From positions 69,875 through 133,874 of IMG/VR virus record IMGVR_UViG_3300033571_019687: 64,000 nucleotides of DNA. One strand, 5' to 3'. Below are positions 2,771 through 64,000 of the stretch, in pieces. The position numbers were made by a program, and so were the translations under genes. Every line of letters begins with the position of its first letter. Position 1 is the stretch's first letter. This DNA is from a virus. Under the pieces are notes generated by a model. The model worked only from the letters and a program-made list of their open reading frames with translations. It was not told the DNA's origin and searched no databases.

Positions 2771-3702
2771 TGGAAAAAACAGTAAATATCTCAAACCCTA
2801 AAGCATTTAAAAGGTTTCAAAAATCAATTGGAAAATTGAGTGAAAACGTCGTTTATAATGTTGATGAATCGAAAAATGAGTTATCATCTTTAAACGAAAG
2901 TGTGTTAGATTTTAAACCAAAAAAAGACCATCTTACTAGGTTCAAAGAGATATTGAACGAAGGTATTCCATATAGATTTTTTGAAGATGAAAATAAAGGT
3001 GGTAATATTGATGCTAATGTAATGACACCAGATCCTGCTATGGCTCAACTGGATCAACCAGAAGAACCTAAACAGGATAATAATGAATTACCAGCACCTA
3101 CTGATAAAGGATTAGTACCTGACAGTCCTGTATCAGAACCTAAACCGGAAGATAACAATTTACCTGCACCTGATATGGGTGGCATCCCTGATTCTGGTAA
3201 TGATTTGCCTCCTATGGATAATGGTATGGATGGTGATGCTGGTACAGAAGAAATTGATGTTACTGAATTAGTTACAAGTACTACTGAATTAAAAGATAAA
3301 ATGGTTAACATTGATAATAGATTCAGTAAAGTATATAAAGATTTAGAAACCATTAATAATAACACTGTTAAAGTAAGTAATGATATTACCGGTTTTATTA
3401 AAGATGTTACTAATACATTACAGTCGTTAACTGCTGAGGTTAATAAAATGAGACCTCCGACAGAAGATGAAAAATTAAGAAGTACATTAGCATCTTCTTA
3501 TCCATTTACAGTAACTGATAAGGATTTTAAAAACGGTAATGCACCAAGAACTGTACAAGACATTCAAGGTAAACAAGTTCAATTTGAACCTGTAAAACAA
3601 AATTCTGGTAATCCATTTGAAAATATGTCAGTAGAAGACTTAAATGCTTTTGTTAGACAATTCCAGAACATAAACAAAATTAGAAACGAAATCACTGGTT
3701 AA
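2770..3702 (+). CDS. Acidic Pro-rich coiled-coil protein, possibly head/scaffold-associated
   Basis: DNNxLPAP-type repeats, LNE motifs, then a heptad-like segment. Confidence 0.45.
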   Translation: MEKTVNISNPKAFKRFQKSIGKLSENVVYNVDESKNELSSLNESVLDFKPKKDHLTRFKEILNEGIPYRFFEDENKGGNIDANVMTPDPAMAQLDQPEEPKQDNNELPAPTDKGLVPDSPVSEPKPEDNNLPAPDMGGIPDSGNDLPPMDNGMDGDAGTEEIDVTELVTSTTELKDKMVNIDNRFSKVYKDLETINNNTVKVSNDITGFIKDVTNTLQSLTAEVNKMRPPTEDEKLRSTLASSYPFTVTDKDFKNGNAPRTVQDIQGKQVQFEPVKQNSGNPFENMSVEDLNAFVRQFQNINKIRNEITG

Positions 3703-5267: not shown

Positions 5268-6281
5268 ATGGCTGTTAAAGATAAAAAAACATTTGACATT
5301 AAAAAACTAATAAAAGATAATTCAAGCTCTACAAAATTTAAAGAGACTTCTTACTATAACTTGGGCCCATCTATGTCTAAATTAGGTATTAATGGTATCC
5401 CAAGGGGTCATATTACCCAAATCATAGGACACTCTGATACAGGTAAAACTACATCAATGTTGCTTGCTATTAAAAGTGCTATGGAGATGGGAGATATTCC
5501 TGTCATAATGATTACAGAAGGTAAGTGGGACTTTAATAGATTAAAACTAGTTGGTGCTCCAATTCACCAAAACGAAGACGGGTCATGGGAAGGTAATTTT
5601 ATTTATAGAGATGATTTGAATACTGTTGAAGAGTGGGGTGAGTTTATTAATGATTTATTAAAACAACAAGAAAAATCACCAGAACCTTTCAATTTATTCT
5701 TTTGTACAGATTCTATTGGTACAATCCCTTGTCAAATGACTTATGAAGGTAAAGGGGGTAAACAACATACAGCATCAAAACTTTCTGATATTGTAGGATT
5801 AAATTTACACCATAAAATTACTCGTACAAGAAAAGAGGAATGCCCTTATTACTCAACAATGTTAATTATTAACCAATGTTGGGTATTTACGCCACAAACA
5901 TATATGGCACAGCCTGTATTAAAACCAAAAGGTGGTGAAGCAATCTATACTCATTCTAGTATGGTACTTAAATTTGGTGCAACAACTCACTCAAGCAAAA
6001 CAAAAATTGATGCAGTTAAAGGTGGTAGAAAAGTGTTATTTGGTCATAAGACTAAAATTACATTAGATAAGGATCACATTAACGGTAAAAGTTTTAATGA
6101 TGTTAAAATAATCTCGGTACCTCACGGTTATATTGATGATACTAAAGAAGCAATTGAAGAGTATAAAAAGAAATATTCTGATTATTGGAAAAAAGAGTTA
6201 GATGTTACAAGTCTTGAAGATATTGAATTAGAAGAAAACGAAATTGTTAACACTGATACAGGAGAAATTTACGAAGAATGA
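5268..6281 (+). CDS. uvsX: UvsX/RecA-like recombinase
   Basis: Walker A GHSDTGKTT, Walker B-like DSIG, IINQ and KPKGGEAI motifs. Confidence 0.85.
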   Translation: MAVKDKKTFDIKKLIKDNSSSTKFKETSYYNLGPSMSKLGINGIPRGHITQIIGHSDTGKTTSMLLAIKSAMEMGDIPVIMITEGKWDFNRLKLVGAPIHQNEDGSWEGNFIYRDDLNTVEEWGEFINDLLKQQEKSPEPFNLFFCTDSIGTIPCQMTYEGKGGKQHTASKLSDIVGLNLHHKITRTRKEECPYYSTMLIINQCWVFTPQTYMAQPVLKPKGGEAIYTHSSMVLKFGATTHSSKTKIDAVKGGRKVLFGHKTKITLDKDHINGKSFNDVKIISVPHGYIDDTKEAIEEYKKKYSDYWKKELDVTSLEDIELEENEIVNTDTGEIYEE

Positions 6282-60687: not shown

Positions 60688-60759
60688 AGCAGCAACTATA
60701 AGATGGTAGCTAAATATCGAAAGATGTTTGAGCAGTGATTCAAAGTCACATCCATCACA

Positions 60760-60886
60760 CTAGAATAGTTAAGATTAGATTTACATCTGGAAAATAAAAC
60801 TATCTAAAATTGTTTTTAAAAGGTTCAAGCCCTTTAACCGATAACTAATAGTTATCGTCGCTTAATCTATTCAATATTCTTTCTAG
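60760..60886 (+). ncRNA. TTACATC-family RNA copy A (Y-RNA-like)
   Basis: TTAGAT-TTACATC-[8 nt]-AAAACT-ATCTAA; T-arm-like AAAGG-TTCAAGC-CCTTT at 60819-60835; outer CTAGAA/TTCTAG. Confidence 0.6.
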
Positions 60887-60893
60887 TATTTAT

Positions 60894-60968
60894 GCAGTAA
60901 TAGCTCAGTTGGTTTAGAGTATTGTCCTTCCAAGTCAAGGGTCGTGGGTTCGAGCCCCACTTACTGCT
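60894..60968 (+). tRNA. tRNA-Gly(TCC)
   Basis: GCAGTAA / TTACTGC acceptor, loop CTTCCAA. Confidence 0.92.
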
Positions 60969-61044
60969 CAAAGATCATTCATTATTAATAATAATTGTGG
61001 AATAACATCTGTCAACTTATTAGTAATTTTGATCTTTATCTTAC

Positions 61045-61117
61045 GGTGGTAAGGTCAAATGGTTAAGATGTCTCACTGTCTATGAGTACGGAGCGGGTTC
61101 GACTCCCGTTATCACCG
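61045..61117 (+). tRNA. tRNA-Asp(GTC)
   Basis: GGTGGTA / TATCACC acceptor, loop CTGTCTA, G73. Confidence 0.9.
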
Positions 61118-61119
61118 CA

Positions 61120-61212
61120 TGAACTTGTGCCAAAATCTGCATCACTAGTTGCAGTACCTAATCAGGAGGTTATAAGCAGCGTAATTTAATACGCAAACGC
61201 CTGATAAGTTCA
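61120..61212 (+). ncRNA. Unidentified structured RNA
   Basis: TGAACTTGT / ATAAGTTCA closing stem, internal hairpins, possible ACCT/AGGT + TCAGG/CCTGA pseudoknot. Confidence 0.5.
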
Positions 61213-61220
61213 AAAACATC

Positions 61221-61291
61221 CTTGAGATAGCTCATTGGTAGAGTGTCATATTTGGTTATGACTGGTAGGTGGTTCGATTCCATCTCTCAAG
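61221..61291 (+). tRNA. tRNA-Pro-like (TGG) with a 6-nt anticodon loop
   Basis: Good acceptor, D and T arms; TCATA-TTTGGT-TATGA. Confidence 0.6.
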
Positions 61292-61293
61292 GC

Positions 61294-61367
61294 GCAGTAA
61301 TAGCTCAGTTGATTAGAGTATAACCTTGCCAAGGTTAGGGCCGTGGGTTTGAATCCCACTTACTGCT
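61294..61367 (+). tRNA. tRNA-Gly(GCC)
   Basis: Same acceptor as Gly(TCC); loop TTGCCAA; T-loop TTTGAAT. Confidence 0.85.
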
Positions 61368-61372
61368 CACAT

Positions 61373-61464
61373 ATGGTAAATATTGATTTACATCTGGAAA
61401 ATAAGGTTCGACTCCTTGTTTGCTACTATTAGGCAAATTATAATAATCAGTATAAAATTCCCAT
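61373..61464 (+). ncRNA. TTACATC-family RNA copy B (T-arm + closed acceptor-like stem cargo)
   Basis: ATATTGAT-TTACATC-[AAGG-TTCGACT-CCTT, GTTTGC..GCAAA]-AATA-ATCAGTAT. Confidence 0.7.
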
Positions 61465-61471
61465 GTATTAC

Positions 61472-61546
61472 ACTCGCATAGCTCAGTAGGTTTAGAGCAT
61501 CTGACTGATACTCAGAAGGCCATAGGTTCGAGTCCTATTGTGAGTA
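61472..61546 (+). tRNA. tRNA-Ile(GAT)
   Basis: ACTCGCA / TGTGAGT acceptor, loop CTGATAC. Confidence 0.9.
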
Positions 61547-61550
61547 CAAC

Positions 61551-61709
61551 GTGTTAATTATCGCAAGAGATAACGCTTAATCATTTCCGACATATTTAAT
61601 GACTTTATGGGGGTTTTGTCATTAAATAGCAATTTGCGCTTTTGTTGTCCATAGTCGATGTTGAAGTTATTTGTTATTTTTAACTTGCGATCTCTTGCGG
61701 TTTTAACAC
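61551..61709 (+). ncRNA. Unidentified long multibranched hairpin RNA
   Basis: GTGTTAA/TTAACAC and TCGCAAGAGA/TCTCTTGCGG outer helices; TATTTAATGAC/GTCATTAAATA inner helix. Confidence 0.55.
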
Positions 61710-61715
61710 TATTTT

Positions 61716-61787
61716 GGTTCCATAGTTTAAAGGATAAAACTACTGGTTTCTACCCAGTCGTTGGGGGTTCGATTCCCTCTGGAACTA
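61716..61787 (+). tRNA. tRNA-Arg(TCT)
   Basis: GGTTCCA / TGGAACT acceptor, loop TTTCTAC. Confidence 0.9.
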
Positions 61788-61789
61788 CA

Positions 61790-61868
61790 TTGTGCATAGT
61801 CATTCAGTGATTTACATCAAGCCCTTTCTCGGTTTACCAAAAACAATCATTGGTTCATTCTTGCACAA
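61790..61868 (+). ncRNA. TTACATC-family RNA copy C
   Basis: CAGTGAT-TTACATC-[20 nt hairpin AAGCC-CTTTCTC-GGTTT]-AAAAACA-ATCATTG; outer TTGTGCA/TGCACAA. Confidence 0.75.
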
Positions 61869-61875
61869 AACTTAT

Positions 61876-62022
61876 TGATAACAAATTGTTGTTAAATAGT
61901 GATTTACATCCATTTCAAGGGGGAAACGTTGGTTCAAATCCAACCTGTGCTGTCACCAGCCGGTCGTCTAGCGGTAGGACACTCAAAAAAACAATCATTA
62001 TACCATTCTCATTTTGTTATTA
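61876..62022 (+). ncRNA. TTACATC-family RNA copy D carrying a circularly permuted tRNA-Glu-like domain
   Basis: TAGTGAT-TTACATC-[3' half TTC..T arm, linker, 5' half D arm]-AAAAACA-ATCATTA; outer TGATAACAAA/TTTGTTATTA. Confidence 0.78.
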
Positions 62023-62029
62023 AACTTAC

Positions 62030-62110
62030 TGATAATTATTGCAGTGAATTAAACATTTACATCTAATTTGGAAAGAAAAACAATGTTTATATAATTCTCG
62101 ATAATTATTA
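62030..62110 (+). ncRNA. TTACATC-family RNA copy E (minimal cargo)
   Basis: TAAACAT-TTACATC-[12 nt]-AAAAACA-ATGTTTA with compensatory stem changes. Confidence 0.75.
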
Positions 62111-62118
62111 AACTCATT

Positions 62119-62249
62119 AACTGTGGTAAATTTATGATTTACATCTAAATCAGCGTGTCATTGGTTCAAGTCCAATTAAGTTCAAAAGACTTATAGCTCA
62201 GACGGTAGAGCAGCCGACTAAAAACATGATCATAGAGTAATTCCCAGTT
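62119..62249 (+). ncRNA. TTACATC-family RNA copy F carrying a near-complete circularly permuted tRNA
   Basis: TTATGAT-TTACATC-[74 nt]-AAAAACATG-ATCATAG; outer AACTG/CAGTT. Confidence 0.8.
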
Positions 62250-62254
62250 TTTTT

Positions 62255-62311
62255 CGCTTAGTTGAATGCAATGAGAATATATCTCAGTAGGCTCGATTCC
62301 TACCTAAGCGA
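62255..62311 (+). ncRNA. 57-nt tRNA-like mini-RNA (acceptor + T arm, no D stem, no anticodon loop)
   Basis: CGCTTAG/CTAAGCG, GTAGG-CTCGATT-CCTAC, TGAGA-ATATA-TCTCA. Confidence 0.6.
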
Positions 62312-63142: not shown

Positions 63143-63214
63143 GGTTTGTAGCTTAATGGTTAGAGCAGTTTGATTTTAATCAAATGATGGTAGGTTCGAG
63201 CCCTATCCAAACCA
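63143..63214 (+). tRNA. tRNA-Lys-like gene with a 6-nt anticodon loop and 6-bp acceptor
   Basis: TTTGA-TTTTAA-TCAAA; GGTTTG/CAAACC. Confidence 0.55.
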
Positions 63215-63225
63215 CCTTAGTTTAA

Positions 63226-63377: not shown

Positions 63378-63500
63378 GAAGAGGAGTTTGTGAATGATAT
63401 TATGATGTTTATGACATCATTATCAGGTCGTTTATATGGTTCACGCAGTGCAAAACGTAGGAAAAAAATAAAAGAAGATAAACAAAAAGAAAAATGTTAA
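63378..63500 (+). pseudogene. C-terminal remnant of an IS607-family serine recombinase TnpA
   Basis: EEEFVNDIMMFMTSLSGRLYGSRSAKRRK follows an in-frame TAA; catalytic N-terminus absent. Confidence 0.7.
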
Positions 63501-64000
63501 AGGGTGTTAAAATAAGGTTATATCCAAATAAAGAACAAGAAATTATATTTAATGGTTTGCTTGGTGGGTATCGCTTTGTTTATAATTCCGCTTTATCATA
63601 TAAAATAACCAAATACGAAACTGAAAGTAAATCAACTTCATTATCTGATACAAGCCATTATTTTCACCAAGATTTAAGAAATAACCATGACTGGTTAAAA
63701 GCACACAATACAAAAGTCATTAAGCAAGGTCTAAGAGATTTGGAAGTTGCATATAAAAATTTCTTTAAAAATGGTCGTGGGTTTCCTAAGTATAAGTCAA
63801 GGAAAGATGAACAACGTTGTCGTTTCCCTAAAGAAGCTGTGGCAAAAGACACATTTAAGAATGATATGTTAAACCTAACCAAAACTATTAATGGTATTAA
63901 TTTCTCGTGTTCTGAAAGAGATAGAAATTATCTATACAAAAATAAAGAGGGTATAAAGTCGGTTACCGTTATTAAAACTAAAACTGGTAAATATTTTGCA
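63494..64000 (+). mobile_element. tnpB: TnpB RNA-guided nuclease, N-terminal part, runs off the window
   Basis: Hand translation: MLKGVKIRLYPNKEQ...GGYRFVYNSAL...LEVAYKNFFKNGRGFPKYKSRK. Absent from the ORF track because no stop is reached. Confidence 0.88.

Follow-up and report, generated by a model that had tools for sequence, protein, structure and literature searches.

The window analysed here, i.e. the final 64 kb of the 133,874-bp virus record IMGVR_UViG_3300033571_019687 from IMG/VR (29% G+C), carries a tRNA cluster in which six related units, all on the + strand, are interspersed across positions 60759-62249 (coordinates are those of the window unless another record is named). Judging from their sequences and predicted folds, we consider it highly probable that the six units represent a family of paralogous Y RNAs, of the YrlA/YrlB type, that is encoded by the phage. 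They are built on a handle homologous to that of YrlA, two of them enclose a mimic of tRNA, and their relatives in other phages are linked to genes for the protein Ro60 (Rsr). An initial annotation of the same stretch, made from the letters alone, had already proposed a Y-RNA-like family at this place, and the proposal is now supported by a full-length, though sub-threshold, match to the Rfam YrlA model, by two covariance models (R1 and R3) and by the association of the relatives with TROVE-family genes.

Y RNAs contact the outer surface of the Ro60 ring via a stem and a loop and can regulate entry into it. Particles of Ro60 and Y RNA show conservation all the way from bacteria to humans, and human Ro60 is an autoantigen in lupus and Sjögren syndrome.

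A common handle around a graded series of interiors

The six units were found where the initial annotation had placed them, with the motif TTTACATC starting at + strand positions 60780, 61387, 61811, 61903, 62056 and 62138. This motif has 17 matches in the window, compared with 6.0 +/- 2.4 in shuffled sequences. The motif ATTTACATC occurs nine times when both strands of the 133.9-kb record are considered; six of these occurrences fall within 1.4 kb, a clustering for which our own Poisson estimate gives a chance probability of ~1e-13. The limits and parts of the units are as follows.

Copy A, 60759..60887, + strand: outer helix ACUAGAA/UUCUAGU; helix 2 UUAGAU/AUCUA; UUACAUC at 60781-60787; cargo of a small hairpin, a T arm (~60821-60835) and an 8-bp hairpin (60839-60857); 3' AUUCUU motif; fold z -2.74, with 1 of 200 shuffles folding as well.
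Copy B, 61371..61466, + strand (from folds and tRNA coordinates): occupies precisely the interval from tRNA-Gly to tRNA-Ile; outer helix AUAUGG/CCCAUGU; loop UAAAU; helix 2 AUAUUGAU/AUCAGUAU; UUACAUC at 61388-61394; cargo of a T arm and a loop-closed 5-bp stem, without a D arm.
Copy C, 61792..61866, + strand (from folds): outer helix GUGCA/UGCAC; loop UAGUCAUU; helix 2 CAGUGAU/AUCAUUG; UUACAUC at 61812-61818; 3' strand CAUUCUUGC; cargo of a single 5-bp hairpin.
Copy D, 61875..62023, + strand: 11-bp outer helix; helix 2 AUAGUGAU/AUCAUUAU; UUACAUC at 61904-61910; cargo of a T arm, an acceptor closed by a tetraloop and with one bulged U, and a Glu-type D arm.
Copy E, 62030..62110, + strand: 12-bp outer helix; loop UGAAUU; helix 2 UAAACAU/AUGUUUA (C:G swap); UUACAUC at 62057-62063; cargo a ~20-nt loop, YrlB-like; fold z -2.55.
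Copy F, 62119-62249, + strand, followed by a U7 run (to 62256): outer helix AACUG.GG/CCCAGUU; loop UAAAU; helix 2 UUAUGAU/AUCAUAG; UUACAUC at 62139-62145; cargo of a T arm, a loop-closed acceptor with one bulged U, a UA linker and a D arm.
Spacers, within 61867..62118, + strand: AAACUYAYUGA between C and D, D and E, and E and F, read from the sequence.

All six copies adopt a common fold consisting of an outer helix, an internal loop, helix 2, the UUACAUC motif opposite an A-rich 3' strand, and a variable interior. The outer helix (5-12 bp) is specific to each copy, yet it pairs in 6/6 copies despite the unrelated sequences. Helix 2 (6-9 bp) shows compensatory changes between the copies (G:C to C:G in E; T:A to A:T), and the earlier claim of stems that co-vary around an invariant TTACATC is borne out. 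The internal loop reads UAAAU, UGAAUU or UAGUNA on its 5' side and AUUCY on its 3' side. It accounts for a second shared element (5' GTNAAT, 3' ATTCYY) that the initial annotation had correctly noticed, and it corresponds to the presumed Ro60 (Rsr)-binding region of the relatives described below. The A-rich strand is AAAAAC in copies C-F, AAAAC in the inner pairing of A and AUAAUA in B.

The interiors differ from copy to copy, comprising a tRNA-like domain in D and F, a T arm with a hairpin in A and B, a hairpin in C, and a bare loop in E; the full tRNA-like domain of YrlA is therefore present in D and F, represented by the T arm only in A and B, and lacking in C and E. Copy A had been credited with a cargo of a mere 8 nt as a result of mis-delimitation, its actual interior resembling that of B, with which it also shares the first 20 nt of the core. 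The description of D and F as permuted tRNAs, on the other hand, is confirmed: the domain order in both is T arm, loop-closed acceptor with one bulged U, and D arm, and both retain signature bases, namely the T loops GGUUCAAAUCC / GGUUCAAGUCC, GG in the D loop and, in F, the UA linker. Neither has an anticodon loop, the place of which is occupied by the handle. We propose that the interior is an exchangeable effector module.

Among the tandem units C-D-E-F, a U run is found 3' of F only. Combined with the AAACUYA spacers, this suggests that the four units are transcribed together, as a single RNA, and then processed into individual units.

Relatives in other phages and in Bacteroidota

When Rfam was searched at gathering thresholds, tRNAs alone were reported in the array. 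With relaxed thresholds, the Rfam YrlA model (RF02553) aligns to copy F over its full length (model positions 1-114) with 40.6 bits and an E-value of ~1e-7. Relatives were found by a complete scan of IMG/VR for TTTACATC-N13-30-GGTTCRANTCC followed by scripted screening, and the same scaffold indeed occurs in many uncultured phages. A viral scan for GATTTACATC-N60-90-AAAAAC returned chance matches only, and a gap of 8-30 before the T loop left the search swamped by tRNA-Val(UAC), the true relatives being obtained with the gap of 13-30. Note that TTTACATC with a T loop 12 nt downstream is tRNA-Val(UAC), the anticodon loop of which is UUUACAU; this identity makes it a trap for pattern searches of the Y-RNA handle. 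Matches from a scan of genome contigs were mostly not Y RNAs, with a single locus (L341) passing R1, and L460 alone passed it in a metagenome scan.

Model R1, a covariance model built from 13 units of other phages with the window sequence excluded, recovers both D (63.7 bits, E 7e-13) and F (51.8 bits, E 4e-10) over their full length, compared with at most 28 bits for tandem-tRNA junctions. Model R3 was built from 11 chromosomal YrlAs adjoining Ro60 genes in Bacteroidota, likewise with no sequence from the window, and scores F at 53.1 bits (E 9e-13) and D at 32.9 bits (E 4.5e-7). With R2, a model of the short scaffold, A and E are top-ranked in the window under default filters, at 16.7 bits (not significant alone) and 15.1 bits (full length, weak), respectively.

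Covariation among homologues, to which the initial annotation had looked as a test of its reading, proved strong. Across 24 aligned sequences, D and F among them, 93% of the cells are paired, against 43-49% when the partners are slid, and compensatory changes occur at 27/32 pairs, with the observed score reached by none of 500 shuffles; the alignment was model-fitted, hence biased towards structure, but the margin is nevertheless large. Helices 1 and 2 exhibit compensatory changes across the family at 15 of their 17 pairs.

The junction motif is equally stable. UACAUC is invariant in all 13 phage relatives, YrlA of Bacteroidota has UACUUC, and UAC is unchanged across both the 13 phage relatives and the 11 Bacteroidota YrlAs. 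A conserved YUAY is found at the junction of the stem and the module in YrlA (PMC4201824), and in the crystal structure of YrlA the UA of this motif introduces a kink of ~30 degrees where the tRNA-like module meets the stem that binds Rsr (10.1101/312249). In the window, UUAC stands at the stem/effector junction in 6/6 copies, so the invariant TTACATC, to judge from its sequence and position, is the YUAY of YrlA in an extended form, the kink that determines how the handle and the effector module are angled.

The loop of the relatives is the Rsr-contact region of YrlA and mostly reads (C)GAAUGC opposite UUUGUC. They carry tRNA-like cargo of 81-104 nt or short cargo of 11-38 nt, and their arrays also hold short-cargo and T-arm-only units, which makes graded cargo a trait of the family as such.

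A separate structured element lies directly after F, at 62254-62311 of the window (+ strand). It is a tRNA-like element without a D arm (z -2.86), called by neither ARAGORN nor Rfam. An 8-bp stem closes it, and inside are an unpaired UUGAAUGCAA, which includes the GAAUGC of canonical phage handles, a 5-bp hairpin and a T arm.

The relatives are consistently linked to Ro60, in agreement with the TROVE association anticipated by the initial annotation. A TROVE-family protein is encoded in 15 of the 17 other virus records with R1-positive units: 12 have Ro60 (profile A1), one has a shorter TROVE-only protein encoded directly next to the unit, and two have DUF2828 (TROVE-like) genes ~2 kb from the units and on the same strand. 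Confirmation by the Pfam domains TROVE and vWA_Ro60 covers five A1 members. In the 12 records with mapped coordinates, the distance between gene and unit is 0-30 kb, and the two are mostly adjacent. Every one of the ten records that are at least 76% complete has a TROVE-family gene, and the two records lacking it are fragments, 16% and 24% complete. On the chromosomal side, Ro60 is present in 14 of 201 (~7%) sampled Bacteroidota genomes, and the sampled Ro60 loci (L510-L519) have an adjacent YrlA in 10/10 cases, with the invariant handle GUG..GUAG ... UACUUCG.

The handle subtype nearest to that of the window comes from L201 (IMGVR_UViG_3300033076_000931), with UAGUAA/UAGCAA as the 5' loop, AAnUUUCU as the 3' loop, and UUAC[U/A]UC; the loop motifs UAGUAA and AAnUUUCU are common to L201 and the window. 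A 542-aa protein is encoded in the middle of the L201 array, with TROVE above the Pfam cut-off and vWA_Ro60 just below it. Some handles in the same record (L201:3382-3562 and L201:5479-5640) enclose complete, non-permuted tRNAs with an anticodon arm, identified by ARAGORN as Leu-tag (3423-3494) and Asp-atc (5512-5583); here the junction with the handle is at the acceptor end, not at the anticodon. These handle-enclosed tRNAs could be Ro60-tagged pre-tRNAs or another type of mimic.

The partner protein and competing explanations

Several results weigh against the identification of the six units as Y RNAs. As for the YrlA match that the initial annotation had called for, F does align over the whole model, but its score is under the Rfam gathering cut-off of 69 bits, and the model finds no match to D. 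With the filters off, R2 does no better than on AT-rich background, and the outside homology of A, B, C and E lacks statistical support; the membership of these four follows from the core that they have in common with D and F within the window. The motif published for recognition by Rsr, GNCGAAN0-1G, occurs in 0/6 copies. No gene for Ro60, TROVE, DUF2828 or vWA_Ro60 was found in the 133.9-kb record when it was searched with profiles from Pfam and one for phage Ro60, with five divergent phage homologues as phmmer queries and with a pooled hidden Markov model run with --max, which confirms the earlier statement that the window has no Ro60 gene and extends it to the whole record; there is thus none within 60 kb upstream of the array or in the 1.7 kb downstream of it. 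No RtcB or Rnl2 was found in the record either, and the search for Rnl1 was uninformative, as it gave no match in control genomes either.

Two of these points concern the reference rather than the array. Phage relatives that adjoin Ro60 genes score 32-58 bits with the Rfam YrlA model, likewise under the cut-off, which means that the cut-off excludes the entire phage branch. GNCGAAN0-1G is exact in just 5/25 phage relatives, and chromosomal YrlAs beside Ro60 in Bacteroidota carry GUGYYGUAGA in its place, so the motif is not universal. The Rfam YrlA cut-off and the GNCGAA motif therefore overlook a whole branch of Y RNAs of phages and Bacteroidota.

The missing partner gene has to be seen in the light of the state of the record, which is 43% complete according to CheckV. 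The contig ends 1.7 kb past copy F, within an IS605-type transposase gene, and it is probably this repeated element that interrupted the assembly so close behind the RNA array. With the record so incomplete and the break so close, a location of the partner Ro60 gene beyond the break is the likeliest. The interrupted gene is a 3'-open reading frame at 63494-64000 (+ strand) of the IS605 OrfB/TnpB type (HTH_OrfB_IS605, E 5e-14); it was itself considered as a candidate for Ro60 and rejected on this identification. A neighbouring 501-aa protein, considered as a hidden Ro60, turned out to be an Mre11/SbcD-type exonuclease.

The alternative that fares best, although we regard it as unlikely, is that the array of this jumbo phage works without any phage Ro60, its RNAs acting as decoys or hijackers of the Rsr/PNPase surveillance of the host, or as Ro60-independent mimics of the tRNA elbow with some other partner. 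It would explain directly why 134 kb, including the 60 kb immediately upstream, hold no Ro60-family gene, and it fits a handle loop that has drifted from both the CGAAUGC and the GUGYYGUAGA types. The 14/201 sampled Bacteroidota genomes with Ro60 indicate that a host protein could exist; Rsr is present in only a minority of possible hosts. Against this explanation, 10/10 sufficiently complete relatives encode a TROVE-family protein of their own and a Ro60 gene accompanies the array of L201, which shares the handle subtype, and the 43% completeness of the record, with the array 1.7 kb from a contig end inside the transposase gene, likewise speaks against it. If it were true, we would be dealing with a Y-RNA scaffold that is Ro60-independent or parasitic on the host Ro60, with modular tRNA-derived heads addressing different effectors.

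Considerably less probable still is the idea that D and F are circularly permuted tRNA genes that yield working tRNAs after ligation and opening of the acceptor loop, with the handle being an excisable intron-like stem and the other copies decayed remnants. The 3' half does precede the 5' half in both, the T arm, the D arm and the 7-bp acceptor are intact, and some L201 handles enclose complete non-permuted tRNAs with anticodons. Processing of this kind was raised as a possibility by the authors of the YrlA structure, who also reported that YrlA of M. smegmatis is cleaved by RNase P and receives CCA (10.1101/312249). Against this, the handle including UUACAUC is equally conserved where tRNA parts are missing altogether (in C, in E and in eight short units of the relatives), so the handle must have a function in its own right. 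The acceptor-closing loops vary and mostly lack CCA; the units associate with Ro60, not with RNA ligases, and neither RtcB nor Rnl2 is found in the record (with Rnl1 uninformative, as stated above). Bacteria are also not known to have a splicing endonuclease.

Finally, the interleaving of the units with tRNAs and the conserved AAACUYA spacers between C, D, E and F might suggest self-cleaving or cis-acting processing spacers of a tRNA operon, or bait for anticodon nucleases, as the initial annotation had also entertained; this we find scarcely credible, as no ribozyme or other Rfam family matches even at E-values up to 10, the YUAY of YrlA accounts for the invariant motif, and D and F, having no anticodon loop, are not substrates for nucleases that read the anticodon.

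Returning to the Y-RNA identification, as to Ro60 binding, the effector and the biological role in the phage, we infer the following course of events. The RNAs would be co-transcribed with the tRNAs of the array, the machinery that processes tRNAs would trim them, and each would dock on a ring protein of the Ro60 family, most likely encoded by the phage in the unsequenced 57% of its genome, otherwise the Rsr of the host. The docked RNA might gate the ring or tether an effector to it, for instance the host PNPase or a protein recognising the tRNA elbow, so that RNA decay or quality control would be redirected during infection. Six heads on one handle could allow a single ring protein to be addressed to different partners or to be regulated differently.

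Most of the components of this scheme have precedents, and the novelty implied by the initial annotation does not hold up. Phage-encoded YrlA was known from 22 phages by 2014 (PMC4201824), and both the occurrence of several Y RNAs per locus and the permuted-tRNA look have been published (PMC4201824; bioRxiv 10.1101/312249; PMC12135203). The phage Ro60-Yrl particle is known as well: Ro60 of the Thermus phage phiLo binds two phage Y-RNA-like RNAs and the host PNPase in vitro (PMC12135203, 2025), and a Listeria phage has abundant putative Y RNAs near an Rsr-like gene (PMC12282133). Tethering of an effector by the second module of a Y RNA is exemplified by Yrn1 of D. radiodurans with PNPase.

The units of the window agree with YrlA/YrlB (RF02553; Chen et al. 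2014, PMC4201824; Wang et al. 2018, bioRxiv 10.1101/312249) in their paired ends, the long stem with an internal loop and the YUAY at the junction. The permuted tRNA mimic with a loop-closed acceptor (D and F), the presence of several copies per locus and the occurrence in phages are likewise as in YrlA, and C and E, being shorter RNAs without the mimic, are like YrlB. They depart from YrlA in being below the Rfam cut-off and without GNCGAAN0-1G, in forming a set of six paralogues that includes half-way, T-arm-only forms, and in being scattered through a tRNA array with no Ro60 gene nearby, whereas YrlA lies just upstream of rsr, the criterion for the type (Chen et al. 2014) being a Ro60/TROVE gene on the same strand at a distance of up to ~4 kb. 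The phiLo system is similar in having phage-encoded Y-RNA-like RNAs and in the proposed mechanism (a phage Ro60-Y RNA particle recruiting host PNPase), but it has two RNAs located directly upstream of the Ro60 gene, a CGAA-containing bulge and no reported tRNA mimic, in contrast to six RNAs, no CGAA and no partner gene seen in the record studied here. Further counterparts are the arrays of uncultured phages (L201, L177, L272, L253/L266, L278/L286 and others), with which the window shares the handle, UAC(A/U)UC, the tRNA-like or short cargo and the position in a tRNA cluster; unlike the window, they carry a gene for Ro60, TROVE or DUF2828 adjacent to the units or at most ~30 kb away, and most of them have the GAAUGC loop. 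What is particular to the present locus is the six-member array, the half-way cargo forms, the diverged AT-rich handle subtype and the absence of a partner gene from 134 kb.

A constant Ro60 handle combined with graded heads (tRNA mimic, T arm, bare loop) offers a way to test which part recruits which effector, and such a natural series of heads bears on the effector logic of prokaryotic Ro60-Y RNA particles. For the phage itself the value is more modest, as the array adds a diverged, AT-rich handle subtype to those already known.

Genomic setting and other structured RNAs

All 13 tRNAs of the record sit in the single array at its end. Motifs of the TAnnTTTG type located 5' of the array suggest a host from Bacteroidota. 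The genes upstream of the array encode glycosyltransferases, ClpP, the Mre11/SbcD-like exonuclease mentioned above and an RNase H-like protein. A search for related loci with the 501-aa exonuclease yielded no relative. The nearest GenBank phage by this protein is the Tunturiibacter phage Tunturi_5 (38% identity), which has neither Ro60 nor Y RNAs and is thus uninformative as to the partner.

Besides the six units, the region between tRNA-Asp and the next tRNA (61120-61213, + strand) contains a structured element with a 9-bp closing helix and two internal hairpins (z -2.7; no Rfam match). Two tRNAs on the + strand, at 61221-61293 and 63143-63216, have irregular anticodon loops; they score 44 and 40 bits, respectively, with the Rfam tRNA model, and their ARAGORN anticodons are 'ttgg' (the loop has 8 nt) and 'tt'. 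Frameshifting or unusual decoding could account for these tRNAs, as could gene decay.

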